Below, in pieces: positions 3,984 to 62,815 of a DNA stretch of 64,000 bases. Origin of the DNA: Candidatus Moraniibacteriota bacterium (GTDB taxonomy: Bacteria; Patescibacteriota; Minisyncoccia; Moranbacterales; UBA2206); the NCBI GenBank assembly GCA_026396175.1, contig JAPLXG010000013.1, positions 1,267 through 65,266 of the forward strand, in the 5' to 3' direction. Numbering within the stretch: position 1 is the stretch's first letter; each line of letters begins with the position of its first letter. The position numbers and the translations under genes were made by a program. The notes under the pieces were generated by a model. That model was not told the DNA's origin, did not search any database, and saw nothing but the letters and a program-made list of their open reading frames with translations.

Positions 3984-5000
3984 TTATCTGCCTAAGCGGC
4001 TATTTAATTTTTTAGTAAAAAAGAATCCTTGGATAAACCTGATCCCATACCAAATGTGAAAAGAAATGAGATATGGAATCGTGGCGACGCTGACCAAAAA
4101 ACTTTTTGTTTTTTGCATCAAAGAAAAAGTTGAATAGAGCACGGCGGTGGCATATAGCCCCAATCCTCCCAGATATAGTTCGTGAATAATCGGCGGAAAA
4201 AAGAAAATGAACAAACCCAAAAACAAATACAGCACAAAAAGAGACGGCACAAAATAGAAAGTGCTAAATTTTCTGGAAGTGGCGGGGAAAACTTTGGCAA
4301 AAAATCCGCGATGAATGCCGTAATTGCCAACTTGTTTCAAGTGCCTCCAGAACCCGGATCTTCGGTGATGATAAACAACCATATCGGGAATGTAGAGAAT
4401 CTTTTTTTTCAACTTATCGATAATATCCAAGCAAAGTTTTGTATCTTCTCCCGGCCAATAGGAAGAATCAAACCCACCCGACTTTTCAAATGCTTCTTTT
4501 TTGACGATAAAATTGACCGTGGGCCAATCTTCGATTTCTTGCACTTTTTTCCCCGACCAATAGCGAATCACCGCTTTCCCTGATAGTGGCGACATAAACA
4601 TCGCTCCGGAAACTTTCTGCCAAAAAGAATCATCCGGAGGGGTTATTTGTGGACCGCCGATGGCAGCCACTTTATCATTTTCCAAATACTTCTCAGCAAT
4701 ATTCAGCCAGTTTTCGTCAGGATAGGCATCGTCATCAGTAAACGCTAAATATTTCCCTTTGGCATATTTCAGCGCTTCATCTCTTTTTATCGCCGGGCTA
4801 ACGTGCCCCAGCGGAATAATTCGCACGCCAAACTCTTTTTCAAATTCCGGATTAGCTTCATTGGCAAATATCAAAATTTCAAAATTTTTCTTGGGAAAAG
4901 CGTTGAATTTTTGGCAAGTTTCTCGCAAGTAGTCATTCACTTCCATAATGGGAATGACGATAGAAAACAGAATTTCGTTATCATTGTTTGAATCACTCAT
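3984..5000 (-). CDS. Family 2 glycosyltransferase with C-terminal membrane anchor
   Basis: 338 aa. LFSIVIPIMEVNDYLRE and AFTDDDAYPDENWL are GT-A motifs. The C-terminus is hydrophobic. Confidence 0.75.
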   Translation of the reverse strand: MSDSNNDNEILFSIVIPIMEVNDYLRETCQKFNAFPKKNFEILIFANEANPEFEKEFGVRIIPLGHVSPAIKRDEALKYAKGKYLAFTDDDAYPDENWLNIAEKYLENDKVAAIGGPQITPPDDSFWQKVSGAMFMSPLSGKAVIRYWSGKKVQEIEDWPTVNFIVKKEAFEKSGGFDSSYWPGEDTKLCLDIIDKLKKKILYIPDMVVYHHRRSGFWRHLKQVGNYGIHRGFFAKVFPATSRKFSTFYFVPSLFVLYLFLGLFIFFFPPIIHELYLGGLGLYATAVLYSTFSLMQKTKSFLVSVATIPYLISFHIWYGIRFIQGFFFTKKLNSRLGR

Positions 5001-8435: not shown

Positions 8436-8540
8436 GTCTAAGCTAAGTAACTGCTATCAGAGATTGTTGCTTGCTTGCCCGCCGGATCCGCCAGCTGGCG
8501 GAGTAGGCAGGTTTCTTGTTTCTTGTTTCTTGCCTCCGGC

Positions 8541-9239: not shown

Positions 9240-9368
9240 AGAATTTTCAATTTCTAATTTCTAATTTCTAAACAATGCTTAATTTCTCAATGACTAAATT
9301 TCTAAATTAAAAAATTGAATCATTGAAAATTGTTTTAAAATTGAAAATTGAAAATTGAAAATTGAAAA
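9240..9368. repeat. Palindromic (AATTTCT)n ... (AGAAATT)n hairpin element, copy 1 (intergenic rnc-nusB)
   Basis: aatttctaatttctaatttctaa...ttgaaaattgaaaattgaaaattgaaaa forms a long imperfect hairpin. It is near-identical to 49441..49562, which lies inside the 16S gene. Confidence 0.8.
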
Positions 9369-9878: not shown

Positions 9879-9961
9879 TAACTTATTTGTTGAAATAAAA
9901 TTAATTCGGATGTGCGCATTCGCCTGCCTGCCGGTAGGCAGGTAGCGCGCTTTTCGCATAC

Positions 9962-11622: not shown

Positions 11623-12492
11623 CTATTTTGTCGTGGTTAATTCGCAATCACTTTTGACGCTCGCGCAATCATAGACCACATCGCCCTGCTGATCTGTGCG
11701 TAGAATTCTAATCTTATCATCTTGCAAGCGGCTCAAAACTTCTGCGGTCGGGTGTCCATAGCGGTTATCTTTTCCCACCGAAATGACTGCTTCCTTGGGG
11801 TGCACAAGCTCCAGCCATTGCGCGCTCGTGGCAGATTTTGACCCGTGATGAGCAATTTTGAGCACATTGGCGCTCAGAGGCAATCTAGAGCTAATCAACT
11901 GACTATCAGCTTCCAATGGCAAATCTCCCGTGAACAGAAAACTGTTTTCGCCATAAGTTAGCTTTGCCACAATGCTCGCTAAATTAGTATCGTCTTTCAG
12001 CCCGGAAATTATTGCATCGGTCGGACTAAACACTTCCAGTTCCGCGTCATCGGAAAGTTTAACTTTCATCCCGCGCCTCGCAATTTGTTTTTCCACCTTT
12101 TTGTCGGAAATTATTTTTTCCAAAGCGCCAAAAACTTGCGACTCACTCTGCGCTCCGCTTTCAATCACCTGGTCGACAGAATAATTTTTGAGCACGTCAA
12201 CAAGTCCCGTAATGTGATCCGCGTCCGGATGCGTCGCAATTACCACATCAATTTTCCGATCCCAAAACGGCACATATTCGCCCAACTTTTCCATTAGTTT
12301 TGTTCCGCTCGGTCCGCCATCGATGAGAATTTGTTTTTCACCATCAGAAATCAAAATCGCATCCCCTTGCCCCACATCCAAAAACGCCACCTGCAATTTT
12401 TGATTTTGCGCGTGAGAATTCACACCAAAAAAAATCAGTCCAAAAGTCAGAAGGATTCCAAGGGAAAAATAGATTAGTTTTCGGTTTGGCAT
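11623..12492 (-). CDS. ComEC C-terminal metallo-beta-lactamase domain protein (stand-alone)
   Basis: 289 aa. Signal/TM segment, then FLDVGQGDAILI ... IATHPDADHITG ... IAHHGS, the ComEC MBL module. Confidence 0.75.
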   Translation of the reverse strand: MPNRKLIYFSLGILLTFGLIFFGVNSHAQNQKLQVAFLDVGQGDAILISDGEKQILIDGGPSGTKLMEKLGEYVPFWDRKIDVVIATHPDADHITGLVDVLKNYSVDQVIESGAQSESQVFGALEKIISDKKVEKQIARRGMKVKLSDDAELEVFSPTDAIISGLKDDTNLASIVAKLTYGENSFLFTGDLPLEADSQLISSRLPLSANVLKIAHHGSKSATSAQWLELVHPKEAVISVGKDNRYGHPTAEVLSRLQDDKIRILRTDQQGDVVYDCASVKSDCELTTTK

Positions 12493-12520: not shown

Positions 12521-12775
12521 TATATCCCCTTCTCCCTCCGGGAGAAGGTGGCTGAAAGCCGGATGAGGGAAAGGGCGTTTGATAAATAACAGCCTAGATT
12601 TGCTTAGATTATTCTTAATATATAGCCCTTGCCCTCACCTGTCATGAGTACATGACATCCCTGCCTACCGGCAGGCAGGCTCTCCCAAGGGGAGAAGAGG
12701 AATTGAAGAGACTATTCCGTAGCCTCACCTGTCCTCCGGACATCCTCTCCCGGAGGGAGAGGAGGATGTTTCATT
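12521..12775. repeat. GC-rich multi-hairpin interspersed element, copy a (about 255 bp)
   Basis: A string of perfect palindromes: CCTTCTCCCTCCGGGAGAAGG, GGCCGAAAGCC, GGATGAGGGAAAGGGCG...GCCCTTGCCCTCACC, GTCATGAGTACATGAC, CCTGCCTACCGGCAGGCAGG, CTCTCCCAAGGGGAGAAG, TGTCCTCCGGACA. Homologous copies lie at 16148, 21711 and 56088. It overlaps the last codons of the comEC ORF. Confidence 0.85.
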
Positions 12776-14236
12776 AGTTTTCTTTTTCAAATAATACACC
12801 CCGCCCACCAAAATTATATACCAAATCACCATTCCTTGCCACGAAAGCCCGACTGCGAGAGCGGAAAATTTGAGGTTGGCGAAATAGTGGATGACAAAAA
12901 TTTCATAGCGCAATGAAAGATAGGCCAGCCAAGAAAAAAGAACCGCTAGTGGTTGAAAGATAAAACTGACTGCGACCGCCAAAAATCCAATGAGCATCGT
13001 GAAGGGCAAAATTGGCAGGACTAAAATATTTGTTACGGGTGAAATAAGCGAAAGCGCTTGGAAATTAAAGAGAATAATCGGCAGAACAAAAATTTGGGCA
13101 CTGAGCGACATAAATAAAATTTCGGAAATTAGGGAAATAATGGTGGGATATTTTTTCAACTTTTCGCCAAAAAATTTTTCAAATATCGGATAGAAATAGA
13201 CGATGCCGATTGTTGCCAAAAACGACAGTTGAAATCCGACATCATAGCGAAGAAGAAGCGGATTCCACCAAAGCATCACCGTCGCCGAAAAAATTATGGC
13301 GTTCCCTGCATTTGCCAAGCGTCCATTTTTCATCGCATAGAGCAAAAGCGTTCCCATCACCCCGGCCCGAATGGCTGACGTCGGAAAGCCAGTCATTAAA
13401 ATGAAAATCCAAATCCCGATAAGGGCAAACCAAAAAGCTTGCCGTCGCCACAAACCGATAAAAAACCCAAGAATCATTAGATATTGCGCCACGATTGTGA
13501 TGTTATACCCGGAAACAGCCACGATGTGCGTCATTCCGGTACGCGAAAAATCGGCCTGAATTTCTTTGGATAAGTTGCCACTTCCACCAATAATTAATCC
13601 CTCGAGCAGTCCGGCTTCCGGAGACGGAATCAGCGCGTAAATCTTGGCACTAAATTTATTTTTCAACGCGACGACCGTGGCATAAAAACCATTGCCCAAG
13701 TTTTGACCGGTTTTCTCGATTTGTGGTTTTTGGCAAAGATAAAAAATGTCCTGTCGTGCCAAATAGGCTTTGTAATCAAATGTGCTGTCCGCCATATTTT
13801 TCGGAATCGCGAGTTGGCATTTCAGTTCCAACTCATCGCCGTAGGCAAAATTTTTATAGGCGCTTTCTTGGATGAGAATATTATAATCAGTATTGTTTGG
13901 CTTGAAAATTAAATCTTGCCGACTATCTTTTATTTTCGGCTCCGCCACGACCATTCCCCGTCCGGAAAAATCTACCGCTTCCGGAGCATTTTCAAATGAA
14001 GCTATTTTATCAATTCTTTTTTGCGTAACAAAAAAACCAGCTGCAAAAAGCAATAGCGCGAGTGTTATAAAAATTGCCTTTTTATTTCTATAAAATACAA
14101 AAAAGATAATTACCGCCGAAAGCAACACGAGTTGCGCAAAAATCGCAGGAATATAATTCGGATAAAAAAAAGAAGCGCCAAAAACGCCCCCGATAAAACT
14201 CAATGAAACAACCAAAAATATTTTCGCTTTGTCCAT
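12725..14236 (-). CDS. comEC: ComEC/Rec2 competence channel (DUF4131 plus Competence domain; MBL domain encoded separately)
   Basis: 503 aa, polytopic. TGMTHIVAVSGYNITIV matches the competence domain. The C-terminal approximately 15 aa are read from the repeat element. Confidence 0.8.
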   Translation of the reverse strand: MDKAKIFLVVSLSFIGGVFGASFFYPNYIPAIFAQLVLLSAVIIFFVFYRNKKAIFITLALLLFAAGFFVTQKRIDKIASFENAPEAVDFSGRGMVVAEPKIKDSRQDLIFKPNNTDYNILIQESAYKNFAYGDELELKCQLAIPKNMADSTFDYKAYLARQDIFYLCQKPQIEKTGQNLGNGFYATVVALKNKFSAKIYALIPSPEAGLLEGLIIGGSGNLSKEIQADFSRTGMTHIVAVSGYNITIVAQYLMILGFFIGLWRRQAFWFALIGIWIFILMTGFPTSAIRAGVMGTLLLYAMKNGRLANAGNAIIFSATVMLWWNPLLLRYDVGFQLSFLATIGIVYFYPIFEKFFGEKLKKYPTIISLISEILFMSLSAQIFVLPIILFNFQALSLISPVTNILVLPILPFTMLIGFLAVAVSFIFQPLAVLFSWLAYLSLRYEIFVIHYFANLKFSALAVGLSWQGMVIWYIILVGGVYYLKKKTNETSSSPSGRGCPEDR

Positions 14237-14289
14237 GAAAATATTATAGCAGAAATTTCAATCCATCTCATCTGGTAAACATAAAAACA

Positions 14290-14430
14290 ATTGTCATTCT
14301 GAGCGAAGCGGAGCGGAGTCGAAGAATCTGCCACAGGTTATTGTTAGCGTTACTACAAATAGCGAAGACTACGATTATAGCAAGCAGATTCTTCGACTAC
14401 GTCCGAGTACGGACTCCGCTCAGGATGACA
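14290..14430. repeat. MITE-like inverted pair of the ATYCTGAGC...TCGAAGRATCT unit
   Basis: tgtcattctgagcgaagcggagcggagtcgaagaatctgc ... gcagattcttcgactacgtccgagtacggactccgctcaggatgaca; imperfect inverted repeats of about 45 bp flanking a 52-bp centre. Confidence 0.7.
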
Positions 14431-14493
14431 TTTTTTGTTTTGACCCCTCTCCTTTACAAGAAAAGGATTAGGCCGAGGTGGATTTTGTTCTAA

Positions 14494-14530
14494 CTCAATA
14501 TTTTTACACAATCAATTTTTATGTTAGAAT
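14494..14530 (+). promoter_or_regulatory. Sigma70-like promoter (TTTACA, 16 nt spacer, TGtTAGAAT extended -10)
   Basis: tttttacacaatcaatttttatgttagaat on the plus strand, about 10 nt before the candidate ncRNA. Confidence 0.5.
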
Positions 14531-14534
14531 ATCA

Positions 14535-14880
14535 TTAGGCCTTTCGATTTGAATCTCATAGCAAGGGAGGTGGTACATTTGGACTGTCGCAACATTAACT
14601 TGCGGAAAAAATAAAGGGTGCTGAGTGGTGTATTTTCAGTTGACCCTTTAAAGGGTCATTGATGGGAGCCGCAAAGTAAGGAGCAAACAACCGCCTACTA
14701 CCTGTCAAATAGGTTAGCCATCATCCTATACTGAGAAAGGCCAAACTCCTTTAGCTATTCGCTAAAGAAAAATGATAGGAAGATTAATATATCTTCGGGT
14801 ACCGCCGACTACCCCAGGGAAAGAGACGATTGTTCTCAGTCGGAAAAGGGTAAGCTTCATATGAAACTTACCCCTTAATT
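14535..14880 (+). ncRNA. Candidate structured ncRNA of about 350 nt, possibly RNase P RNA (rnpB)
   Basis: Non-coding on both strands. Bounded by a plus-strand promoter and a plus-strand intrinsic terminator. Contains GGAGCAAACAACCGCC (cf. E. coli M1 RNA AGAGCAAACCGCC), AAGGCCAAA and GGUGCUGAG, and many local helices. The identification is tentative. Confidence 0.35.
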
Positions 14881-14890
14881 TTATTTTGTA
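14846..14890 (+). terminator. Intrinsic terminator
   Basis: GGGTAAGCttcatatgaaaCTTACCC followed by CTTAATTTTATTTT. Confidence 0.55.
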
Positions 14891-14899
14891 GCAAAAAGA

Positions 14900-15136
14900 T
14901 TACCCAACATCCACCATCTTCCTCGACGAACTTTTTCCTCCGATAATCGAAATAGCGCTTTTGGCAACGCCAAAATGTTCAGCTAAAAGTTTAATTAGTG
15001 CCTCATTGGCTTTGCCGTCGACTGGTGGCGCATTCAAGTGCACTCGATACTCGCCTTCGCTGATTTTTTCAATCTTATTTTGCGACGAGCGCGGGATGAC
15101 TTTGATGTAAATTCGCATTTGGTTAAAAGTTGTCAT
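14900..15136 (-). CDS. DUF167 / YggU family protein
   Basis: 78 aa. IKVIPRSSQNKI ... NAPPVDGKANEALIKLLAEHFGVAKS is the YggU signature. Confidence 0.7.
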   Translation of the reverse strand: MTTFNQMRIYIKVIPRSSQNKIEKISEGEYRVHLNAPPVDGKANEALIKLLAEHFGVAKSAISIIGGKSSSRKMVDVG

Positions 15137-15282
15137 TCCCGCACCCGTTTCACGAGTATAAACTCCGGCGGGAATCTAGTGTAAAAACTAAACCAACTAG
15201 ATTGACCTACTATTTAGATTAGTTATTTAAACAACGCCTTTCCACTGGATCCCCGTCTTCACGGGGATGACACAAAGAGAGA

Positions 15283-16137
15283 TTAAGCGACTTCCTCTGC
15301 TTTCTGCGCGAAAGTGTTTTTCAATTTCAAAAACAAACTCACAAACATTAAGCCCAAAAGCAAAACATTCATCCCGATAAAAATTTCTCGCATAATGCCA
15401 GACTTCAAGTCTGTTCCCAAATAATAGGCGTGAAAAAAAGCGAGGGCATAGAGCGCGATATTCAGAAAATGCGTCACACGCCAAACGCGGTAAGATAGAT
15501 ATTTGCGGAAGTATGATGTGAGAATAATCGCAACCAGGGCATACATCCCCAGCACGCCCAGCGTCACCAGCTCAGGATTATAGGTAGAAGCGAATGGCAC
15601 GAAAATATCCTTGAGACTGAATTTAAGATAATTATCACCAAGCAAGACCAAGCCGTGAATAAAAGTAAAAACTAACGCTTGGACAGAAATCCAGGCATGG
15701 AAATTATATGATTCAAGCGGTTGAAAGATATTTTTTAATCCCGGAAAACGAATTGCGATGCCGAAAAAAATTGCGAGGTAAAGTAGTAAAAAAGAAATAA
15801 GGCCACCTGCTCTCGTGAGGTACCAGGACCAAAGTTGCCTCTCCTCTTCAGGATATTGCAACACGGTTATATTTTTTGTCACGCTCGGGCTGGTTCTGTC
15901 TAATGGATTAGTACCAGCCAGCACTTCCGCTCCGTCCAAAATTCCATCGCCGTCCGTGTCGGGATTGTTGGGATCAGTATGATAGATTTGTTTTTCGCCC
16001 TCGTCAGTCAGACCATCCAAGTCACTATCAATCACCGGATTATTTCCATAATCCACCTTTGGCGTTTCCGCCGCCAACGCCACACCAAAACGTGAGCCAA
16101 GGATAATTATTGTGATGATGAGGATTATTTTTTTCAT
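15283..16137 (-). CDS. Secreted/membrane protein: thrombospondin-type-3-like Ca-binding repeats plus ferric-reductase-like (MsrQ/YedZ-type) haem membrane domain
   Basis: 284 aa. Signal peptide. DSDLDGLTDEGE / DTDGDGILDGAE (DxDxDG repeats). Six-TM domain with conserved His (HAWISVQ, HGLVLLG, HFLNIALYALAFFHAYY). Confidence 0.6.
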   Translation of the reverse strand: MKKIILIITIIILGSRFGVALAAETPKVDYGNNPVIDSDLDGLTDEGEKQIYHTDPNNPDTDGDGILDGAEVLAGTNPLDRTSPSVTKNITVLQYPEEERQLWSWYLTRAGGLISFLLLYLAIFFGIAIRFPGLKNIFQPLESYNFHAWISVQALVFTFIHGLVLLGDNYLKFSLKDIFVPFASTYNPELVTLGVLGMYALVAIILTSYFRKYLSYRVWRVTHFLNIALYALAFFHAYYLGTDLKSGIMREIFIGMNVLLLGLMFVSLFLKLKNTFAQKAEEVA

Positions 16138-16147
16138 AGTTTATTAT

Positions 16148-16402
16148 TTATATCCCCTTCGCCATTAGGGAGAAGGTGGCCGAAGGCCGGATGAGGGAGA
16201 GGGCGTTTAATTAATGACGAGTTAGCTTTGTTTAGATTATTCTTAATATACAGCCCTTGCCCTCACCTGTCATGAGTACATGACATCCTCTCCCGAGGGG
16301 AGAAGATGAATTGAAGAGACTATTCCATAGCCTCGCCTGTCCTCCGGACATCCCTGCCTACCGGCAGGCAGACTCTCCCTAAGGGAGAGAAGGATATTTC
16401 AC
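16148..16402. repeat. GC-rich multi-hairpin interspersed element, copy b
   Basis: Same modules and order as 12521-12775. Lies between the ferric-reductase-domain gene start and the ApbE stop. Confidence 0.85.
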
Positions 16403-30137: not shown

Positions 30138-30150
30138 AGGTTTTTGATTA

Positions 30151-31005
30151 TTATTTCTTCTTTATGTTTATTTTTTTTCTCAAACCGCTCTTTAGTCTTT
30201 TCTTTCGTGCTTTTTCGAGTTCTTTGATATGCCGCTCTGCTTTCAGCTCTTCCGGCATTGTGCCACCAATATCTTTAATTGTATTTCTCACTTTGCGCCC
30301 CACCTCAAAATGCGTTGCATTAGCCGGCTCCTCACCAAAGAGTTCCTCCTTGATAATTTTATCATCCGTTTGAGTGATGCGAAAAAGGTTAGCCGCTAAC
30401 TCCGTCGCTCCCGCCCGATCAAGCACGTCATCTTTGCCGATTTCTTTTTTCTTTTTAATTTCTTCAACCGTCAAACCATACAATCCCAAATAGCCATAAT
30501 TATTAAACTTTCCAAAATTGCTCACGCCTGCTTTCTTGGCTGTATCAAAAAGTTTTTTATTATGTGTTTTTACCTCGCCCCTAATGAATAATCGCTTTTG
30601 ATCTTGGTCAAGCTCTTGAAAAATTTCCTGCTTCCTGGTTTGCACGGCAAAATAGGTTTGCGCCATGGCGATTTCCACCTTTCTTGGGTCACCATTTTGA
30701 GCAATCAGATAACAAGCATAGCGAGAAAGTCGATAGTCTTCAATTTTTCGAAAAGCCTCTTTTTTTGTTCCCCTGGCGATTTTTATCATTTTGTCGGCGC
30801 CGACAAAATGATCTGCCACTTCTTGACTACTTGTACCACAAGCATCTTTTGCCCTTTGGATAGCCCCTTCGAATTTTCTCCATTCCTTATACCCCAAGAG
30901 CGGCATCAATTCTCGCGCTTCCCAATATTCAACGCCATTCTTATCAATTTTTTTGATACTCTCAAAATCCTTATGTAGTCCGGCTAATAATTCTATTTTT
31001 GACAT
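30151..31005 (-). CDS. dinD: DNA-damage-inducible protein D family
   Basis: 284 aa. WEARELMPLLGYKEWRKFEGAIQRAK ... DHFVGADKMIKI ... LSRYACYLIAQNGDP matches DinD closely. Confidence 0.8.
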   Translation of the reverse strand: MSKIELLAGLHKDFESIKKIDKNGVEYWEARELMPLLGYKEWRKFEGAIQRAKDACGTSSQEVADHFVGADKMIKIARGTKKEAFRKIEDYRLSRYACYLIAQNGDPRKVEIAMAQTYFAVQTRKQEIFQELDQDQKRLFIRGEVKTHNKKLFDTAKKAGVSNFGKFNNYGYLGLYGLTVEEIKKKKEIGKDDVLDRAGATELAANLFRITQTDDKIIKEELFGEEPANATHFEVGRKVRNTIKDIGGTMPEELKAERHIKELEKARKKRLKSGLRKKINIKKK

Positions 31006-31070
31006 AATTTTATTTTAGTTTATTATAATGATATTATACCACTATAATAATTCTTGGCAAGTTTTTGCTA

Positions 31071-31358
31071 TTATTTCTTCGGCCAACCCCAATTCCATTT
31101 CGGTTTTTCGCCTTTCTTGTAGGCAATAGCAAAGAGCGCCGTGGTTAGCAAAATTACCAAAACTAGAAAAGTAACTGGCACATCTTTTGGCGCCGACTCG
31201 TCAATTGTTTTTGTCGCCGCAACAAGTAGCGCGACATAGCCCACAATCACCAACCACCCCTGCCATTTGACCGGCGCCCAACCCCAGCCAAACCTTTTTT
31301 GTTTAAACCAAAGACCTTTAGGATTGTCTTTTGCGTATGCCAGGTATCTTTCAAACAT
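31071..31358 (-). CDS. Small two-TM membrane protein
   Basis: 95 aa. Trp-rich termini (WGWAPVKW, WNWGWP). Confidence 0.4.
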   Translation of the reverse strand: MFERYLAYAKDNPKGLWFKQKRFGWGWAPVKWQGWLVIVGYVALLVAATKTIDESAPKDVPVTFLVLVILLTTALFAIAYKKGEKPKWNWGWPKK

Positions 31359-31381
31359 ATTTTTATTTTATATAATTGTTA

Positions 31382-31738
31382 CTAACAAGCCAGATTTTTC
31401 AGATAATCCTTAATTCTTTCACGATCTTCATTTTCTTTATTGCCTTTGTAGTATATTTCAATAAATTCAATGAGTTCGACAGTCTCCGTTTTGAGATGAT
31501 AGGCATAGATCACCCGAAAGAATTTTCCCTTGGTGGAATCACAATGCATCCGCACTTTGTAGATTTCCAATGTGTCATTTTTGTGAAGCAAATTCCAATG
31601 CTTGCTTCCATTTCCCTGGGGCGCCGCAACCAGATATATTTCTTTGAGTTGGCGAAAGTCCTTTTCCAATGTGCGATATTTCTTGGAAAGTTTTTTCAGC
31701 TCTTTAACAAATTCTTGCGTTTGTTGAAAATTTATCAT
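31382..31738 (-). CDS. Putative toxin, RelE/ParE superfamily-like, partner of the Panacea-domain antitoxin
   Basis: 118 aa. Starts 17 nt downstream of the antitoxin gene on the same strand. The C-terminal half (KVRMHCDSTKGKFFRVIYAYHLKTETVELIEFIEI) is RelE/ParE-like. Confidence 0.5.
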   Translation of the reverse strand: MINFQQTQEFVKELKKLSKKYRTLEKDFRQLKEIYLVAAPQGNGSKHWNLLHKNDTLEIYKVRMHCDSTKGKFFRVIYAYHLKTETVELIEFIEIYYKGNKENEDRERIKDYLKNLAC

Positions 31739-31754
31739 CCGGATTTTGGCTTAC

Positions 31755-32549
31755 TTAGAGTTTATCATATTCCCGAACTGACAATTTTTCATCCCGATAG
31801 AACACGCCATTATATTCCACTCGCTCCCCCATCTTGGCCGCTCGCCAAGGCATGTCTTCATGAGAAAGTTCCGACAGTTCTTTGGCAGTCTTGTCCGCTA
31901 GTCTTCGCAGTTCCCAATCAATATGTTTGATTTCTTGCGCGGTGAGTGGCGTCAAATCAACTTGATAGTCAGGATTCAAGAAATATTTCTTCTGCTCCCG
32001 ATCATAGAATTTAGATTTCACTTCCTCAATTTCATTCTTAGCTTTCATTTCTTCCACAATCTTGGCAAACATTACTGGAGTTGGACCAAAATGATTTTTG
32101 ATATACACCGCTCCCATCAACTGCTCCTCAAATTTTTCATAGTAATCAAAATCGATAAAATAGAGCAGTTTATAGATTGCGGTCATACCGATATTAGGTT
32201 TGCCCCCAACTTTTTTGAGAATATATGTTAGGACAGTCTTGAATTTTTTCTGATTCTTGATCGGCACAGAAATCCTAACCTCGTTTTCAGCTTTCTTCTC
32301 TTTCTTAATGTCTGCTTTTTCCAAGACAACTTCTTTTTCCATCACTGCAGTATCCGACAAAAATTCCACGAGTGTCATGCCAAAAATTTCCGCCAGCAGT
32401 CCCGCTTCGGTCACGGTGATGTCCCGCTCACCTTTTTCGATTTGCATATAGGTGGGACGAGAAAGGCTTAATTTCTTGGCTAAATAGTCCTGAGAATAAT
32501 CCTGCTTCAATCGAAGATTTTTGATTTTCTCGGCTAGTTTCTTAGGCAT
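31755..32549 (-). CDS. HTH (XRE) plus Panacea/DUF4065 domain antitoxin (PanA-like)
   Basis: 264 aa. N-terminal HTH LAKKLSLSRPTYMQIEKGER. C-terminal IGMTAIYKLLYFIDFDYYEKFEEQLMGAVYIKNHFGPTP is characteristic of DUF4065/SocA. Confidence 0.7.
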   Translation of the reverse strand: MPKKLAEKIKNLRLKQDYSQDYLAKKLSLSRPTYMQIEKGERDITVTEAGLLAEIFGMTLVEFLSDTAVMEKEVVLEKADIKKEKKAENEVRISVPIKNQKKFKTVLTYILKKVGGKPNIGMTAIYKLLYFIDFDYYEKFEEQLMGAVYIKNHFGPTPVMFAKIVEEMKAKNEIEEVKSKFYDREQKKYFLNPDYQVDLTPLTAQEIKHIDWELRRLADKTAKELSELSHEDMPWRAAKMGERVEYNGVFYRDEKLSVREYDKL

Positions 32550-32794
32550 AGTTTTATCATTTTTGATTATATTAAAAGCTTACCTCAAGAAATAGTTATT
32601 GTCAAGTATTTTGACACCATATAGTGCTAGGTTATTTGACATCTTTTCTATCCCGTCTGCTCCCCACAAAAGCCCCATGCAAAATCGATTGCTCCGGCCG
32701 ATTAGCCAGCATAACCCCGAAATCCCCCTCCCCATCCCAATCCATGAGGAGAGAAAGTAGTTTTGGGTGGTTTATTTTTTTGTATAAAAAGTTA

Positions 32795-33523
32795 TTACTC
32801 GATGTTTTTTATGTAATGACAATTTGGATAATTGGAACAGCCATAAAAACTTTCTCCGACATGAGAACCTTTGCGCGCAGTTTTCAAAACTAAGTTACCA
32901 CCACACTTGGGACATTTTTCAGCAACGCTAGATCCAAAGACTGGACGGTTAGAGATAGTCTTGTCCAATCCGGCCAATTTCACATATTCCATCAATTTTT
33001 TTCCATCAATCAATTCAATTGGTTTTCCTATCGCGAAATTTTCCGCTTCAAGTGTGAAAACATTGGTCGTGATGAAAAAAGATTTTGCGTCAGAAAGTTT
33101 GTTCACAACGGCACCATAGAAATCGCGCATCGCTCCGACAGAAACTTGCTGGGTGATGAATTTTTTGCATTGGATGTAGTGCTTCACTCCCCCTTTCGTA
33201 GCAATAACATCAATTCCGCCGTCATTCGGACCACCAACTGCTTCAGTTGCATAACCTAATTTATCAAAAAGATGACAAATAAACGCTTCGAACTGAGTTG
33301 GAGCCAAGTTTTTTATCGCCTCCAGTGAATTCTTACTCTCAAAAAAGCTCATTTTCTTTCGCTTCTTGTATAAAACATAAATGACTATAGGCAAAAATAA
33401 AGCCACAAACATAATAGACGCCCCTAAGGCTGTATTTTTAAATAGCACCGGCAAAAACTTTATAAACACAATGAGCGCATACAAGACGAATACCATCTCG
33501 CCTACTGATTGTTTTTTAGCCAT
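32795..33523 (-). CDS. Membrane-anchored Mrr-like restriction endonuclease domain protein with C-terminal topoisomerase-type zinc ribbon
   Basis: 242 aa. Two N-terminal TM helices. Mrr_cat core GGPNDGGIDVIA ... QCKK. C-terminal CPKCGG...CSNYPNCHY. Confidence 0.7.
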   Translation of the reverse strand: MAKKQSVGEMVFVLYALIVFIKFLPVLFKNTALGASIMFVALFLPIVIYVLYKKRKKMSFFESKNSLEAIKNLAPTQFEAFICHLFDKLGYATEAVGGPNDGGIDVIATKGGVKHYIQCKKFITQQVSVGAMRDFYGAVVNKLSDAKSFFITTNVFTLEAENFAIGKPIELIDGKKLMEYVKLAGLDKTISNRPVFGSSVAEKCPKCGGNLVLKTARKGSHVGESFYGCSNYPNCHYIKNIE

Positions 33524-33603
33524 TTTTTGTGTATGTAATTAATTACGTAATTAAAAAATTATTTCTGAAACACGAGCAGATATTCGTGCATTGAACGTAC
33601 AAT

Positions 33604-33777
33604 TATTCATCTTTCACTATCTTCATCTTCATCGCAGTCTTCGGATAAATCCTCAAGTAGCCAATCTCTACCACAAGCACAATTTTCTCGATATGAATAT
33701 TGATATTGACCACCGATAAGTTTTAGGTAAAGTTCATTTCCACATTTGCATTTTATTATTATTCGTCGATTTTTCAT
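33604..33777 (-). CDS. Small zinc-ribbon protein (57 aa)
   Basis: MKNRRIIIKCKCGNELYLKLIGGQYQYSYRENCACGRDWLLEDLSEDCDEDEDSER. CxC...CxC. Read by hand. Confidence 0.3.
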
Positions 33778-33781
33778 AAAT

Positions 33782-34210
33782 TTATTTATAGCGCCTTACC
33801 AATTCCAAACAATCTTCAAAAGCATCTGCCTTACCACCAACAAATTCGTTAAGCCCGTATTCTTCAATTTTCTCACTTTCCCAAAGTTCTTCTTTCCAAG
33901 CCTTTCGATAATTTCTTGCCAAAATTGCTATATGTTTTTCTAGCGATTCTCCGGTGATTTTTTCCAAAAATCCCTTCGCCATCAGCTCAACCGTTTTTGC
34001 ATATAAGTTTTGCAGATTTTCCCATAACTCAAATGTTTGATATTTTTTATTAGAGCTAATTAATTTCCACTCATTTGGTTCGATGTCTAAAAAATCGTCG
34101 CCCTTTTCCTCTGCGTATTCTTTGCACATTATCCGAAATGGAAAATAGAACTTTTTGTGCTTATTGAGATATTTTAGTATTTTGATAGCAAGCTCTCTGG
34201 AGATTTTCAT
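33782..34210 (-). CDS. Hypothetical protein
   Basis: 142 aa, helical and charged. No motif recognised. Confidence 0.4.
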   Translation of the reverse strand: MKISRELAIKILKYLNKHKKFYFPFRIMCKEYAEEKGDDFLDIEPNEWKLISSNKKYQTFELWENLQNLYAKTVELMAKGFLEKITGESLEKHIAILARNYRKAWKEELWESEKIEEYGLNEFVGGKADAFEDCLELVRRYK

Positions 34211-34270
34211 AAAATTGAACAGAAATTAATTTTTATTTCTGATCAATTCTTGATCGTTTTGGAAATTATG

Positions 34271-35059
34271 TCAAATCGCTAATTTATAGCGACCACGCGA
34301 AACAAATTCCAAATATCCTTTGTCTCGTAAAACCTGTAATTGCTGGCGTAATTTGTCTTTGATGAAGTTGTTTTCTGGATGTTTTTCTTTCAGTTCTTTT
34401 TCAAAGGCATAAACCTCATCCAGCGAAAATTCTCTCTTTCCGATCTTATCTATGCAACTCATTGTATCCAAAATCCAACCCTTAGAAGCAAGCTCTTTCT
34501 CCTCCCGCAAAAATAAAGTTTTTTGCCAATTTTCCAAAACCTCTTTTTTGGTTTCTACTTTTCCGTTTTTTATATAAAATATTTTTCCAGTTTGAGGAAT
34601 ACTTGAAAGAGAAATATTGCATCCAACCCAGCCGGCACGTCTAGCCATTTCTGAAAGTGGTTTTCTTTTCTCGATAATGTCTGGAACAAAAAAATGCTTA
34701 GGAATAACGAGAAAGTTTCGAACTTCAAAATTTTTCAAATCGTAATTAAGAAAAAAGAAGTTGGGATTATTATTACTTTGCAACCTCTCAATCATTGTCC
34801 GATAAGCACCATCAACAATTTTATTTCCCATCGAATCTTTCTTGCTTTTAAGCTCATATTCCTCTTTACAATCATCGCAATAAAAATCAGCAACTGGCCT
34901 ATTATTTTCAAAGTGATTTATAGGACAACCGCAAGCTGGACAAAAGATTTCATTACCAACCCATCCTTCACTCATTGCCTTGATTTTCTGTGACGAGCTA
35001 TTATATTTTTCCGCTAATTTTACATCAAAAATAATCTGCATGAATTTTACTTTCTCCAA
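34271..35059 (-). CDS. DpnI-family (Dam-replacing family) methylation-dependent restriction endonuclease
   Basis: 262 aa. Collinear with DpnI: CPACGCPINHFENNRPVADFYCDDCKEE, NNPNFFFL, RKPLSEMARRAGWVGCNI, IRQQLQVLRDKGYLEF (C-terminal winged helix). Confidence 0.8.
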   Translation of the reverse strand: MEKVKFMQIIFDVKLAEKYNSSSQKIKAMSEGWVGNEIFCPACGCPINHFENNRPVADFYCDDCKEEYELKSKKDSMGNKIVDGAYRTMIERLQSNNNPNFFFLNYDLKNFEVRNFLVIPKHFFVPDIIEKRKPLSEMARRAGWVGCNISLSSIPQTGKIFYIKNGKVETKKEVLENWQKTLFLREEKELASKGWILDTMSCIDKIGKREFSLDEVYAFEKELKEKHPENNFIKDKLRQQLQVLRDKGYLEFVSRGRYKLAI

Positions 35060-35087
35060 TTACTAATTACCAACCCACTCTCCCACA

Positions 35088-35195
35088 AACCCTCCCTGTT
35101 AAATCGTATTTAACAGGGTAAATCCAACTCCTCAAAAACCCCATCGGTGAAATTGGCTGGTTTGAATCCAAAAATCGCCTTCGCGTTTTTGCTTC
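35088..35195. repeat. Hairpin CCCTGTTAAAT-cgt-ATTTAACAGGG plus a 70-bp element repeated downstream of three adjacent island genes
   Basis: caactcctcaaaaaccccatcggtgaaattggctggtttgaatccaaaaatcgccttcgc recurs at 36755-36825 with about 85% identity. The hairpin recurs at 47897-47935. Confidence 0.7.
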
Positions 35196-35202
35196 TTGCG
35201 AC

Positions 35203-36648
35203 CTACATCAAAAAATAATAATCCAATGGCACAGATACTATATTTTCTTGCATATCCAGTTTTAGTTCAGCGCCAGAAAAAATGATTCCGTAGTCAGACT
35301 TGATTTTACGCATCGTTCCCATCACTTGTTTTTTATCTTTATTTCCAAGGCCAACTTCTATGACAATTTTTTTGGAATTTCCGATTTGTAATATAAAATC
35401 CGCTCCTCCCTGAGCACTGTCATAGCGGATAACTCCATCGCCTCGCAGAATAAACTCTCGATAGAGATGCGCGCCTATCGAATCTTCCAGTAGTTTTCCT
35501 TGCCTTGTTGAATAAGTGCCTTCATTTCCGGAAAAATAAAAAAATGACATTCTTATCGCCGGGCTCATAAATAAATACTTATTGGCTTTATTGGCAATCG
35601 TCATGTTAGAACCATGTGGTGGAATCTTCACTAAAAGCTCAGCTTTCTCCAAAACATCAAAAATATTTGCCAGAGTTAGGCGACTGATGTTGAATTTATT
35701 TGCCAGCGTAGTTAAGCTTGTGATATCATTTTCTGCAATTGCAAAAAGAATTCTTTTCACTGCGCCAAGTGTGTCTTGATCAAAACTTCCAAGAGTCGGC
35801 ATGTCTTGCTTGATAATTTTTTCAAGCAAAAGCGATATATTATTATAAATTGAAATCTCATCCGGCATTATTTGCGCAAAAGGAAATGTTCCATAGGATA
35901 AATATTTTTTAATGTCATGCCTGTCTATCTTTGACCAGTAACTATTAACCAGGCCAGATAACTCAGTTAAATTATTATGAACCTCCTGGGCCGTTTTGGA
36001 AAAATAAATCGCCTGTCTTATTTTATTTTTCAATCCAGTGGTCGGATAGATTTTACTTTTTATCATCTGGTATTCGCCAAAGCACATCGGCGTCATTGGT
36101 TCAAAAATAGCTCTTCTGGCAATATTGGGCGTTGATTGCAAAACAATCGCTGAAGACCCTGTAACGCAGAAAAAAACATTGTTCGTTCTCTCAAATAACG
36201 ATTTCAATGCGATCGCCCATTTTGGATCAGTTTGCACCTCATCAAGAAATATTATTATCGGTTTTTTCAGACTTTCCAAATACTCGCCGATAATCTTTTC
36301 GTAAGCTGAAACTATTTCATTAATACCCACATCAAAATAGTTCCGCAGATCTTCCACCGAAAGAAAAAAAACTTGCACATCTTTTCCCTTAAATTCTGAA
36401 CATATTTGTGCCATGAGAGTTGTTTTTCCCACGCCCCGAAAGCCTGGAACGATAACCAGCCTATTTGAAGATTTTTTATCCAGAAAATCATTAATATATT
36501 TTTTTAATTTTATGTACAAAAAACGCTTGGGGTGCCTCTCTCCATTCGGACCATGCGTAAAATGCACCAACCGATCATCCGTGGTCAAAATCTGCTTTTG
36601 CAAATATTGGATTAATTCCTGATTCATGTATATTTTGCTATACAACAA
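35203..36648 (-). CDS. AAA+ ATPase (AAA_14 plus DUF4143, COG1373 type)
   Basis: 481 aa. Walker A GFRGVGKTTL. Walker B IIFLDEVQ. C-terminal DUF4143-like region. Confidence 0.75.
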   Translation of the reverse strand: MLYSKIYMNQELIQYLQKQILTTDDRLVHFTHGPNGERHPKRFLYIKLKKYINDFLDKKSSNRLVIVPGFRGVGKTTLMAQICSEFKGKDVQVFFLSVEDLRNYFDVGINEIVSAYEKIIGEYLESLKKPIIIFLDEVQTDPKWAIALKSLFERTNNVFFCVTGSSAIVLQSTPNIARRAIFEPMTPMCFGEYQMIKSKIYPTTGLKNKIRQAIYFSKTAQEVHNNLTELSGLVNSYWSKIDRHDIKKYLSYGTFPFAQIMPDEISIYNNISLLLEKIIKQDMPTLGSFDQDTLGAVKRILFAIAENDITSLTTLANKFNISRLTLANIFDVLEKAELLVKIPPHGSNMTIANKANKYLFMSPAIRMSFFYFSGNEGTYSTRQGKLLEDSIGAHLYREFILRGDGVIRYDSAQGGADFILQIGNSKKIVIEVGLGNKDKKQVMGTMRKIKSDYGIIFSGAELKLDMQENIVSVPLDYYFLM

Positions 36649-36754
36649 TTATACGTTTGTAGTATAGTATACTATTCAATAAATGTCAAATGCTAGTTTT
36701 TAGGCTTTAATTAGGCTTATTTCACAGCAATCTCTTGCTAAATATCCTCAACTC

Positions 36755-36825
36755 CTCAAAAACCCCATCGGTGAAATTGTCTGATTTGAATTTGAAAATC
36801 GCCTTCGCTTTAGTAGAAATTATTT
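36755..36825. repeat. Second copy of the 70-bp 3' element, plus the ccatattttacgtcttt motif shared with 38375-38395
   Basis: caactcctcaaaaaccccatcggtgaaattgtctgatttgaatttgaaaatcgccttcgc. Confidence 0.7.
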
Positions 36826-36852
36826 TAATACTCCCAAAAACCTATCCATATT

Positions 36853-38247
36853 TTACGTCTTTTTGGCTATTCTTACCAGCTTATCCTTTTCAACCAAAAC
36901 AATATTCTTTCTTTTTTTCGCCAACTTTTTCATATCTAGCGTAAAACCGCTCTTGCTGAATAATATAAACTGCTCCTTTCGACTTGCATTGTTCCAATCA
37001 ACATTTCTGGCCTTATTTTCAAGCTCAACAAAAATATTTGTCCCCACTTGCCTATTTGACCATTTTACTTCGCCAAAAATAATTTCCTTCGTTTCTTGAT
37101 TGAATCCAACAATATCAATCTCATTGCTATCATTCCACCATCTGCCGACATATTGAAAGTTATTCCCCATATTCCGCTGCGCCCATTCGCCAGCGATTTC
37201 CTCATAATTTCTACTAACCAATTCTGCAATATTACTTTTGATAATTTTCACAACTTCGCCCTGACTTCCCTCCTCGATCAATTGCTTATTGCGGAAAATG
37301 AAACGAAACCAAAACTCGAAAAAATTATCCGAAATACGATAAAACCCTTTGCGACTTTTTTCGGGAATTTTTTCAGTGATAGAAATTTCTTTTTGCACAA
37401 TCAATAATTGTTGCAAGACCGCAAGATAGGAAGAAATTGTCGCTTTGTCAAAGCCGGTATAATTCATTACTTCCGATGCCTTTCTTTTTCCAAGAGATAG
37501 TCCGAGCAAAATGGAAAAATAGTTTCTTGGCTCTCTAAATTCTTCTCTTAAGAGAAAATCGACCTCTTCATACATAAACTGTTCTTTTGAGAGCATTGTG
37601 CTTTCCATTACTTTCCAAAAATTTTTCCTACCTAAAAAATTCTTTAAGTAGGTGATTGTTCCGCCAACAACCGAATAAATCATCAATCTTTCCTCAAAAC
37701 TTTTTTTCGGAAAAATATCTTCAAGTTCAAAAAAAGAAAACGGGCGAACTAGAATTTGCCCGGATCTCCTACCATATAGTGGCGCACCATATATTAGAGT
37801 GTGCTTTTCCATCATGCCAATACTTGAACCGCACAAGATGAGATAGACCGGAGACTTGCTCAGATATAGGTCCCAGCCTTTTTGAAAAACTGATGGAATT
37901 GCCGGATCCGCATCCACCAGATAGGGAAATTCATCAATGATGATAACTATTTTTTGTTTTTTTTGCGCAATGTATCTAAATAACTGCTCCCAATCTTGGA
38001 AGCCATATTCTGACACATAGGCATCCTTAAAAAATACGCCTACCTCTTGCGATATTTTTTGTAATTGCAATTTCGGATCTAGACGTTCGGCTAGGTGAAA
38101 GATAGTCGGCTTATTTTTAGCAAATTCTAAACTTAGGGCTGTTTTCCCCACCCTTCTTTTTCCATACATAATAACCAAATGACTGCCCTTTTCCTTCCAC
38201 CAGTCATTAAGCGCTTTTAGCTCCGATTTTCTGTTATAAAACTTCAT
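36853..38247 (-). CDS. ATPase (Arch_ATPase/PF01637 plus DUF234, COG1672 type)
   Basis: 464 aa. Walker A YGKRRVGKTAL. Walker B VIIIDEFPYL. C-terminal DUF234-like part. Confidence 0.75.
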   Translation of the reverse strand: MKFYNRKSELKALNDWWKEKGSHLVIMYGKRRVGKTALSLEFAKNKPTIFHLAERLDPKLQLQKISQEVGVFFKDAYVSEYGFQDWEQLFRYIAQKKQKIVIIIDEFPYLVDADPAIPSVFQKGWDLYLSKSPVYLILCGSSIGMMEKHTLIYGAPLYGRRSGQILVRPFSFFELEDIFPKKSFEERLMIYSVVGGTITYLKNFLGRKNFWKVMESTMLSKEQFMYEEVDFLLREEFREPRNYFSILLGLSLGKRKASEVMNYTGFDKATISSYLAVLQQLLIVQKEISITEKIPEKSRKGFYRISDNFFEFWFRFIFRNKQLIEEGSQGEVVKIIKSNIAELVSRNYEEIAGEWAQRNMGNNFQYVGRWWNDSNEIDIVGFNQETKEIIFGEVKWSNRQVGTNIFVELENKARNVDWNNASRKEQFILFSKSGFTLDMKKLAKKRKNIVLVEKDKLVRIAKKT

Positions 38248-38411
38248 TTTAGTATAATTTAGATTAGTATAATTTAGATTATACTAAATATTTTACTCCT
38301 TCCCTGCAAATTGTCAAGGACTTGTATCATTAATACAGTTATTTTCTCAAGCTACCAAAAACCCTCTCAACTCCATTTTACGTCTTTGATTTTATTAAAA
38401 AGTCAGCCAAT

Positions 38412-39326: not shown

Positions 39327-39399
39327 CAGGCCTTAGATACTTATACCTCGAAATTGTTTTCCTCTTCCATCCTACCCCAAATCCATGCTTTCGTAAACC

Positions 39400-42422: not shown

Positions 42423-42517
42423 TGGTGGCACCACCTGGACTTGAACCAGGAATCCTTCCGCCTAAGCCAGAGTGCTCGTAGCCTTACGAAATGCTCTACC
42501 GATTGAGCCATGGCGCC
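42423..42517 (-). tRNA. tRNA-like gene with encoded CCA and a greatly expanded anticodon region (identity undetermined)
   Basis: Acceptor GGCGCCA/TGGTGCC. D arm GCTC-AATCGGTA-GAGC. T arm CCTGG-TTCAAGT-CCAGG. The anticodon stem (TTTCG/CGGAA) would enclose 26 nt instead of 7. Confidence 0.45.
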
Positions 42518-47695: not shown

Positions 47696-48194
47696 ATTTG
47701 TGTAATAGTAACATTTTTATGCCTTAAATGTAACATTTATGTTACAATCGGTCAACTAAAATACCGCCTATTTCTCCAAAATGGCTGATTTAAGCCCTAA
47801 TTATTGCAACATTCTAATCTTCCAATTTCCAGCGAGCCAACACAAAAAACACCCTGCCTACCGGCAGGCAGGCATTCAAGGTGTTTTTAATAAAGTTTAC
47901 CCTGTTAAATGCTCCGGGTACGGAATTTAACGGGGTAAATCACAAACTTTTGCGATTAGTCCAAAAAACGAAGTCTAAATCCTCTGAGAGATTCATTACT
48001 GAATCAATGCGTAAGGTGTACAATACCTACGGCTACAGAATTATTTAGCTCTGTTACACTTAGCTGTTACCCTGGATTGCTCCAAAATTACGACCAGCAA
48101 GTAAAATCCACATTCCACAACATTTAGTTTGACCCAAATGTCTTCCGCCAACTGGCGGGGTGCAATGCTCTAAGATTCTACCAATATCTCCCTA

Positions 48195-50124
<1,930 letters not shown>

Positions 50125-56010: not shown

Positions 56011-56087
56011 AAATTTAAATTGCTAAATTGTTATATTGCTAAATTGCTTTTTACAAACTACAAACTGCCACTTTTTTTATTTGTATC

Positions 56088-56356
56088 CCCTTCGCCCTTA
56101 GGAAGAAGCCTGCCTGCCGGTAGGCAGGGTGGCCGTAGGCCGGATGAGGGAGGAGCCTTTTGATTAATGATGAGTTAGCTTTGCTTAGATTATTCTTAAT
56201 ATACAGCCCTTGCCCTCACCTGTCATGAGTACATGACATCCTCTCCCGAGGGGAGAAGAGAAATTGAAGAGACTATTCCATAGCCTCACCTGTCACGAGT
56301 ACGTGACATCCCTGCCTACCGGCAGGCAGGCTCTCCCTAAGGGAGAGGAGGAATTC
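56088..56356. repeat. GC-rich multi-hairpin interspersed element, copy d (longest; carries two CCTGCC hairpins)
   Basis: Same module order as the 12521 and 16148 copies, with an extra cctgcctgccggtaggcagg near the 5' end. Confidence 0.85.
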
Positions 56357-62767: not shown

Positions 62768-62815
62768 GTTGTTATTCGCTTCGCGAACCCCGCCGTGGCG
62801 GGAACATACGAATGT
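62768..62815. repeat. Third copy of the GTTATTCGCTTCGCGAACC...ACATACGAAT element, between mreD and mrdA
   Basis: gttgttattcgcttcgcgaaccccgccgtggcgggaacatacgaatg. Confidence 0.65.

Follow-up and report, generated by a model that had tools for sequence, protein, structure and literature searches.

A probable family of mosaic palindromic repeats, REP/BIME-like in make-up, in the genomes of Moranbacteria

Genomes of the candidate phyla radiation (CPR, Patescibacteria) are regarded as streamlined and repeat-poor, and our literature search found no description in them of repeats resembling repetitive extragenic palindromic (REP) sequences, bacterial interspersed mosaic elements (BIMEs) or miniature inverted-repeat transposable elements (MITEs). 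Here we analyzed a 64,000-nt stretch of contig JAPLXG010000013.1 (positions 1,267 to 65,266; assembly GCA_026396175.1) from a Candidatus Moraniibacteriota bacterium, hereafter the window, in which an earlier note, made from the letters alone, had pointed out four copies of a GC-rich element built from consecutive hairpins. With a probability of roughly 0.7, these copies belong to a family of interspersed repeats, non-coding, palindromic and mosaic, that is restricted to a clade of Moranbacteria, with a REP/BIME-like make-up and MITE-like inverted termini. Comparison with relatives showed that the family behaves as mobile DNA, which is gained and lost, inverts and swaps cassettes. It is a new family of a familiar repeat kind, not a new kind of system.

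Composite copies in the window and their common core

Copy A (12521..12775, + strand) occupies the gap between comEC-N, which encodes the Competence domain, and a separate metallo-beta-lactamase (MBL) gene for the C-terminal part of ComEC. Copy B (16148..16400, +) lies between a ferric-reductase-like gene and apbE, copy C (21711..21875, +) between a gene for a C-terminal fragment of nrdD and nrdG, and copy D (56083..56355, +) between serS and a 137-aa open reading frame (ORF). The four copies, 165-270 bp in size, are homologous, sharing a 167-nt segment at 66-93% identity that aligns module by module; they have one orientation, and each sits in a short gap between minus-strand genes. The earlier note had recognized the homology of all four and their setting between minus-strand genes, and its fourth start, given as 56088, had to be moved to near 56083.

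Copies A, B and D are long forms, and copy C consists only of a 165-nt core (hairpins H1-H5). The modules of copy A follow one another as H1, H2 (GGCTGAAAGCC), a long stem H3 closed over an AT-rich loop, H4 (GTCATGAGTACATGAC), a 20-nt hairpin termed the CCTGCC hairpin (CCTGCCTACCGGCAGGCAGG), H5, a spacer hairpin and a second unit (TGTCCTCCGGACA + CTCTCCCGGAGGGAGAG). The claim that every copy contains the same eight perfect hairpins in the same order was not borne out: copy C has five hairpins, copy A carries the CCTGCC hairpin ahead of its first CTCTCCC hairpin, and in copy D an additional CCTGCC hairpin, inverted, separates H1 from H2. One hairpin of the spacer, GAGACTATTCCATAGCCTC, had been left out of the list, module 1 contains a G.A mismatch in three of the four copies, and the long stem is interrupted by a bulge and by an A.G mismatch. 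GC content, which had been described as far above the background, is raised only (49-53% versus 40.6%). The density in the window is four composites and at least five solo hairpins per 64 kb. The modules are much too frequent for chance: the module CCTGCCTACCGGCAGGCAGG, with up to three mismatches allowed, occurs at 6 sites against 0.00 expected, and the module CTCTCCCNNNGGGAGAG at 8 sites against 0.04 expected.

Alignment of the family identified the unit common to all copies as a core of about 165 nt, (AT)ATCCCC-H1-H2-H3-H4-TCC-H5-AGGA, to which the long forms add the spacer hairpin and a partial second H4-H5 unit. H1 reads CCTTCKCCC-loop-GGGAGAAGG, and the H2 slot is filled by one of two alternative complete hairpins, GGCCGAAGGCC or CCCCGCCGCGGCGGGG. 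H3 consists of GGATGAGGG(A/C)AAGGG and GCCCTTGCCCTCACC on either side of about 48 variable AT-rich nt; the H4 slot, TGTC-x-GACA, holds five types, all between TGTC and GACA; and H5 is CTCTCCC-nnn-GGGMGARG. The modules other than the 20-nt CCTGCC hairpin measure 11-23 nt, and H1, H2a, H4 and H5 were never seen outside composites. The two termini of the core are inverted copies of each other (left ATCCCCTTCKCCC..., right ...GGGMGARGAGGAT): the core profile hidden Markov model aligns end to end with its own reverse strand, and RNAalifold pairs both ends. Module tables of the family copies contain nearly all combinations of H2, H4 and H5 variants, which indicates exchange between copies, and L034 and L038 (loci defined below) have an identical left part with a different H4 cassette.

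Distribution of the family

A scan for the exact 19-mer GCCCTTGCCCTCACCTGTC returned 22 stretches in species-representative genomes and 30 in metagenome contigs; L numbers denote loci from relatives and metagenomes, L005 and L006 both being JBAQUL01. A core profile search of the 19-mer loci yielded 47 full copies, 45 of them distinct, which were found only in the Moraniibacteriota metagenome-assembled genomes (MAGs) JBAQUL01 and JBAXPY01, two further MAGs and most of the metagenome contigs. In Streptomyces, Ruegeria, Chloroflexota and similar genomes, the 19-mer was present by itself, with no element copy around it. Independently made assemblies from NCBI, ENA and JGI all contain copies of the family. 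Rfam gave no match at the gathering threshold or at E<=10 (the best score, 18.6 bits versus a threshold of 44 bits, was to unrelated small nucleolar RNA and microRNA models), and we found no publication with the element sequences and none tying CPR bacteria to MITE or REP elements.

Gain, loss, inversion and exchange between relatives

Site A is the junction of comEC-N and the MBL gene. The window and JBAQUL01 (L006) have about 300 nt of element between the two genes; in four relatives with 64-85% MBL protein identity (L053-L056) there is no element, and the genes overlap or adjoin directly. At site B, the apbE gap, L054 has 19 nt and no element, and the window and L006 have 270 nt with a copy each; the ortholog of copy B in JBAQUL01 (L006:5164-5416) shares 92.6% identity with it, setting aside one precise 20-nt indel of the CCTGCC hairpin. 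At site C, the nrdG gap, the window and L054 (3776-3940) carry the element, and L006 has an AT-rich repeat there. The occupancy at these three sites cannot be explained by a single gain on a single tree. Another orthologous site is filled in L013 and empty in L030.

Copy D and L005:6712 of JBAQUL01 share 90% identity and both contain the inverted CCTGCC insert, and their flanks are unrelated and their sites non-orthologous, so the core spreads as a unit. In-place inversion was also seen: at one orthologous site, L014 is opposite in orientation to L011 and L035, with 95% identity once turned. The earlier note had considered that the element might be absent from all relatives and lack compensatory conservation; copies are present in relatives, and their stems contain compensatory changes (see below).

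Several points weigh against reading the family as mobile repeats. No transposase, integrase or Y1/HUH protein was found by Pfam among the 60 window ORFs, nor does one appear among the annotated genes of L053-L056, and no clear target-site duplication was seen, the empty sites being too diverged to resolve one. Part of the incongruent occupancy could reflect deletions instead of insertions. The loci were found through an exact 19-mer, and their gene calls are crude longest-ORF calls. Two orthologous pairs have 92-93% identity versus 74-80% in the flanking coding DNA, which fits either host selection or concerted evolution. Of 49 copies, 41 have the + form on the C-rich strand, a bias confounded with gene strand, so that an insertion bias linked to replication is not separable from one linked to transcription. 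Finally, the flanks of the 20 CCTGCC hairpins show no GTAG or CGTC tag of the REP kind, and CGAA stands instead on the 3' side of five of the nine solo hairpins.

Pfam assigned the hairpin-flanked genes of L034 to ordinary genes only, such as DprA and TopA, with no transposase, and no parental insertion sequence (IS) with the same termini was found in about 600 kb of loci, a search that was not systematic genome-wide. The check for a REP-associated tyrosine transposase (RAYT) suggested in the earlier note was carried out on the 64-kb window and 80 kb of relatives, where none was found. ATAT stands at both ends of many copies and is absent at the empty site A; being palindromic, it may be part of the inverted termini.

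Gene context and promoter- or terminator-like features

Among the gaps in the loci, as delimited by the crude ORF calls, 34 of 267 co-directional and 7 of 32 convergent gaps are occupied, and none of the 31 divergent ones, so every copy adjoins a gene end. Relative to co-directional genes, 27 copies are oriented as in the window and 9 are opposite. This avoidance of divergent gaps would be expected if the elements were host-selected cis-regulatory punctuation, in which the hairpins end or stabilize the upstream transcript and a -35/-10 pair in H4, H3 and the loop restarts transcription, an explanation that we consider unlikely for the family as a whole.

In copy B (16245..16273, minus strand), the promoter-like motif ATGACA-17 nt-TATATT has the -35 in H4, the spacer in the right arm of H3 and the -10 in the AT-rich loop. 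It is found again on the minus strand at 12617-12645, 21808-21836 (as GTGACA/TAAATT) and 56198-56226; all four window copies therefore carry it, pointing at the downstream gene, and the -10-like hexamer that the earlier note had located in the AT-rich loop on the minus strand is part of it. Across the family, only 20 of 43 copies have a promoter-like register; several of these stand in sense or convergent contexts, so that the motif would fire antisense, and some point away from gene starts. Within the element, the AT-rich loop with the -10 evolves fastest and is least conserved.

No hairpin followed by a U-tract was found in copies A-C, and copy D has two weak ones only. Among the hairpins of the family, only the solo one at 47853, on the 3' side of the 16S gene, shows the pattern of an intrinsic terminator, and in this respect it resembles a 16S terminator. 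Directly upstream of copy C, a conserved terminator-like hairpin (CGGGGCAATCTTG...CGGGATTGCCCTG) lies at 21887-21920 (minus strand) and is kept in L054, so termination of the upstream gene does not require copy C. Two further observations favor punctuation, namely that the stems of orthologous copies can outconserve the neighboring genes and that an RNase III gene lies nearby. Against it, the element occurs in both orientations at one site, its neighbors being retained after the flip, relatives at 64-85% protein identity do without it, with genes overlapping at that place, and its wobble pairs show no strand bias. The combined terminator/promoter module proposed in the earlier note thus keeps its motif within the window, and the proposed role appears weak. 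Judged from the sequence, a dedicated promoter or terminator role is not the common denominator of the family, and single copies may have such effects.

The CCTGCC hairpin and other solo hairpins

The CCTGCC hairpin occupies 20 sites across all loci, 11 nested and 9 solo. Nested examples in the window lie at 12660..12679 (+) in copy A and at 16353-16372 (+), 56109-56128 (-) and 56311-56330 (+) in other copies. The solo hairpin at 9923..9942 (-), in the rpmF-nusB gap, is inserted exactly in the loop of an older hairpin module: L053 is empty there, L054 has the older module only, and the window has the module with the CCTGCC hairpin in its loop. A second solo hairpin, at 47853..47872 (+), is located 324 nt downstream of the 16S rRNA 3' end, and its minus strand continues into GTGTTTTTTG and scores as terminator-like. 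These two, placed at 9921 and 47852 in the earlier note, are real; another of its entries, at 24713..24733 (-) in the nrdD-nrdR gap, proved to be a variant with a 1-nt insertion (GCCTGCCTGCCGGCGAGGCAGG), close to a related degenerate module at 24662-24700. In the one that it had called a variant, a CCTGCC-type hairpin at 8476..8514 (strand unassigned), the loop encloses a second palindrome, TCCGCCAGCTGGCGGA, which is perfect and 16 nt long. The earlier note had overlooked one more solo hairpin, at 62788. It falls within a solo compound hairpin of another small family (62768..62815, strand unassigned), TTATTCG-CTTCGCGAA-CCCCGCCGTGGCGGG-AACATACGAAT, whose core, CCCCGCC..GGCGGGG, serves as the alternative cassette in the H2 slot of other composites and is known from 12 nested and 7 solo sites.

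Solo CCTGCC copies mostly cap larger hairpins; the outer stems of these differ from one another and yet stay complementary. The flanks of the 20 hairpins read CTA, TTA, ATC or CAC on the 5' side and CGAA, CAAA, CTCT or CTTC on the 3' side. CGAA(T) directly follows five of the nine solo hairpins and could be a candidate recognition tag. The compound family is also present at L034:2765-2830 and 4065-4130, as TTATTCG-CTTCGCGAA-[CCCC..GGGG hairpin]-ACATACGAAT; both of these copies, which flank dprA, carry a CCTGCC hairpin nested in the central loop.

A bolder proposal, improbable in our view, would make CCTGCCTACCGGCAGGCAGG and the CCCCGCC..GGCGGGG hairpin mobile units in themselves, copied precisely into the linkers and loops of folded single-stranded DNA by an unrecognized enzyme or repair pathway; the mosaics would then have been built stepwise by nesting and later co-opted as operon punctuation. 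If so, the two hairpins would rank among the smallest known mobile units, and in a host, a CPR bacterium, that is poor in transposases.

Structure, strand symmetry and conservation

The family alignment was evaluated against a model of local hairpins that was supplied by hand; RNAalifold on the 45-copy alignment gave only invariant, end-to-end long-range pairs and no covariation. Under the local-hairpin model, 91.4% of the cells are standard pairs, versus about 50% with the partners slid, and 24 cells have changed on both sides, versus 6.8 in shuffles (none of 500 shuffles as high). These double changes are concentrated in H2 (GCC/GGC to GCT/AGC, CCC/GGG or GTC/AAC) and H4 (CATG to CACG), and also occur in H3. 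G.U-type cells are equally frequent on the two strands (40 on the + strand versus 39 on the - strand, where they appear as A.C-type cells of the former), and both strands fold stably (-103 and -109 kcal/mol, z -5.9 and -6.4). Palindromy is therefore maintained, with no sign of one RNA strand as the selected product, and stem compensation with no strand preference points to DNA-level palindromes rather than a specific RNA. The covariation analysis suggested in the earlier note accordingly confirmed compensatory stem changes and gave no signal of a strand-specific RNA structure, which was rejected as a candidate.

Equal palindromy on both strands and an AT-rich center between GC stems would also suit architectural sites on DNA, either cruciform or bound by proteins, that manage the nucleoid or supercoiling, comparable to the binding of BIMEs by gyrase, integration host factor (IHF) or DNA polymerase I. 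The orientation bias toward the C-rich strand noted above could be added in its favor. The center contains no conserved binding-site consensus, and close relatives dispense with the element, which makes this a highly improbable account. Slightly less probable still is a family of independent structured non-coding RNA genes, one of the two possibilities raised in the earlier note: the very stable fold and the compensatory changes in H2, H3 and H4 would fit it, and against it stand the lack of any Rfam match even at E<=10, the differences in module content and order among copies, the occurrence of both orientations, including the flip in place, the symmetry of wobble pairs between strands, and copies that abut or overlap ORF ends, leaving no space for signals of their own. 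An assembly artefact or tandem duplication, for which nothing speaks, was rejected as having a negligible chance, given unrelated flanks, 66-93% rather than complete identity, and recurrence in independent NCBI, ENA and JGI assemblies.

Between orthologous copies, divergence falls mostly in the AT-rich loop, and the stems are almost invariant. That orthologous copies always outconserve their flanks was rejected as a rule, since it is false for other pairs, for example window A/L006:2460 and L012/L025; values of 75% versus 79% and of 72% versus 68-76% were obtained. We read the conservation of the stems as concerted evolution among copies combined with constraint on palindromy, to which selection at the level of the host may contribute.

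Proposed route of spread and its significance

Under the preferred reading of the family as mosaic mobile repeats, the modules would be copied in trans, either by an enzyme whose gene lies elsewhere or by a repair or recombination route of the host. The copying would act most plausibly on folded single-stranded DNA, because the insertion points are unpaired linkers or loops, and frequent gene conversion among copies would generate both the mosaics and the uniform stems. Copies co-transcribed with their neighbors would form a very stable multi-hairpin block in the mRNA (about -100 kcal/mol on either strand), which probably constitutes a barrier to 3' decay or a processing point and would uncouple genes that formerly overlapped. 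Because of this side effect on the mRNA, and not because of a dedicated promoter or terminator, copies would be tolerated at 3' ends and excluded from gaps that contain promoters only.

The family is dense and dynamic between species, and it alters gene ends and operon junctions, separating overlapping genes and supplying a 16-residue tail to ComEC-N. It offers a tractable case of how tiny palindromic DNA spreads with no visible transposase. In practice, it is a marker for strain typing and a reason for caution in the assembly and gene calling of these MAGs.

Contribution to comEC and other reading frames

The comEC-N ORF (12725..14236, minus strand) terminates inside copy A, which provides its last 16 codons and the stop (12725..12775, minus strand; tail NETSSSPSGRGCPEDR*), as the earlier note had stated. 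The tail is conserved in L006; in element-free relatives, comEC-N ends in ...KKK(T) and overlaps the next gene. ComEC is encoded by two genes here, one for DUF4131 and Competence domains (12725-14236) and one for an MBL part of about 289 aa (11623-12492), and the two ORFs overlap by about 20 nt in element-free genomes. The idea that the element split comEC was rejected: a separate gene for an MBL part of about 289 aa is present in all of the 120 best homologues, down to 52% identity (Moranbacteria-wide), and the element entered a pre-existing junction. In-frame insertion was observed a second time in L005, where a half-element (H1-H2-left arm of H3, 741-821) lies within ORF 149-1369, a HypF-like carbamoyltransferase gene. 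It encodes SPSPFGRGWSALGGPGEGKGE, which aligns as an insertion relative to the HypF structure PDB 4g9i.

Other features of the window

A second family of palindromic repeats, AT-rich and about 120 nt long (AAATTTCTAATTTC...AATGACTAAAT...AATCATTGAAAATTG), occurs in the window at 9242-9363, 49449-49562, 48590-48715 and 49950-50035, and in relatives at L053:12572-12705, L054:12748-12876, L006:7820-7935 and L030:5160-5274. In two orthologous gaps, an AT-rich element takes the place of the GC-rich element of other genomes. One AT-rich copy lies in the RNase III/nusB gap and is conserved there in relatives, and an 85%-identical copy is found inside the 16S rRNA gene. This gene has three AT-rich inserts and, at 1934 nt against a model of 1533 positions, is about 400 nt too long.

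The nrdD gene (22345-24606) is followed by a separate 99-aa ORF (21937-22236), a duplicate of its C-terminal glycyl-radical domain, with nrdG next in line. The ORF and the end of nrdD are 90% identical over 101 nt of DNA, and the arrangement is kept in a relative (L054:3455-3715). Its product may serve the anaerobic ribonucleotide reductase as a 'spare part', in the manner of GrcA.

An island of lower GC content (about 30150-39330; 0.35-0.37) contains defence or foreign genes, with Bro-N, helix-turn-helix plus SocA/Panacea, Mrr, DpnI, AAA_14/DUF4143 and ATPase_2/DUF234 domains, and two Fic-domain genes lie at 43628-44506 and 46637-47695. Two adjacent long tRNA-like genes of 95 and 86 nt (42423-42517 and 42540-42625, minus strand) are both classified as tRNA by Rfam; ARAGORN called one undetermined and the other Asn(att). 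They may be intron-containing or long-arm tRNAs. The region 14253-15283, about 1 kb between comEC-N and the ferric-reductase-like gene, contains no ORF of at least 80 aa; only 14886-15124, a small PF02594-type gene, matches relatives, the remainder not being conserved with L006, L053 or L054.

Comparison with known repeat families

REP, REPIN and BIME sequences of proteobacteria are mobilized by RAYT (TnpA-REP) Y1 transposases. The present family resembles them in consisting of short GC-rich palindromes in high copy number, arranged in mosaics with alternating orientation and other motifs. As in BIMEs, there are several architectures, and the CCTGCC module is found in both orientations within composites. 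REPs lie downstream of ORFs, between unidirectional or convergent genes, and sometimes inside genes; they are co-transcribed, specific to a species or clade, and have an unpaired GTAG or CGTC at one end of the palindrome (PMC3733652). Our elements likewise lie 3' of ORFs in unidirectional or convergent gaps, are sometimes intragenic, are co-transcribed and are specific to a clade. They differ from REPs in the tag and in the lack of a RAYT within the 64-kb window and 80 kb of relatives, and from the REP doublet in that the unit of spread is a 165-nt five-hairpin core with inverted termini. In contrast to the REPs and BIMEs of proteobacteria, the modules nest in each other's loops, and the host is a CPR bacterium. 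When compared by eye with the motifs of enterobacterial BIMEs (Y, Z1 and Z2; L with its IHF site, and S), the likeness was limited to GCCGGATG.

The Correia elements of Neisseria and the ERIC/IRU sequences of enterobacteria and Yersinia are MITEs with long imperfect palindromy, which occur in both orientations and contain internal promoter-like sequences. The elements described here share with them a length of 100-270 bp, non-coding character, inverted termini, occurrence in either orientation, longer variants through insertions at fixed internal points and insertion polymorphism, as well as co-transcription, long hairpins, an internal promoter-like sequence and a conserved sequence at differing locations. 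They are unlike them in having no clear TA or other target duplication and no known parental IS, and in being a chain of short independent hairpins with cassette slots rather than one long stem. The BOX elements of Streptococcus pneumoniae (boxA-boxB-boxC) are similarly modular and intergenic, vary in how many internal modules they contain, and have RNAs predicted to fold stably; their sequences are unrelated, and the modules of the present family, unlike those of BOX, are palindromes able to exist and insert alone. Judged by eye from the sequence, integron attC sites appear unlikely: the ends bear no RYYYAAC/GTTRRRY cores, and housekeeping genes flank the copies.

The RPE sequences of Rickettsia and the GC clusters of yeast mitochondria are further parallels, being GC-rich palindromes in an AT-richer compact genome that insert in frame into ORFs (here, the comEC-N tail and the HypF-like gene) and form nested, clustered insertions. 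Their hosts and sequences are different, and to our knowledge their mechanisms are themselves poorly defined. As judged by sequence features, strict membership in the REP/RAYT or MITE families fails: the copies lack the GTAG/CGTC tag, and no RAYT or other transposase turned up in the window or the annotated relatives, nor any clear target duplication. The REP/BIME type that the earlier note had proposed stands as a description of kind: the elements are interspersed, modular, palindromic, clade-restricted and located downstream of genes, and they undergo gain and loss, inversion and exchange.

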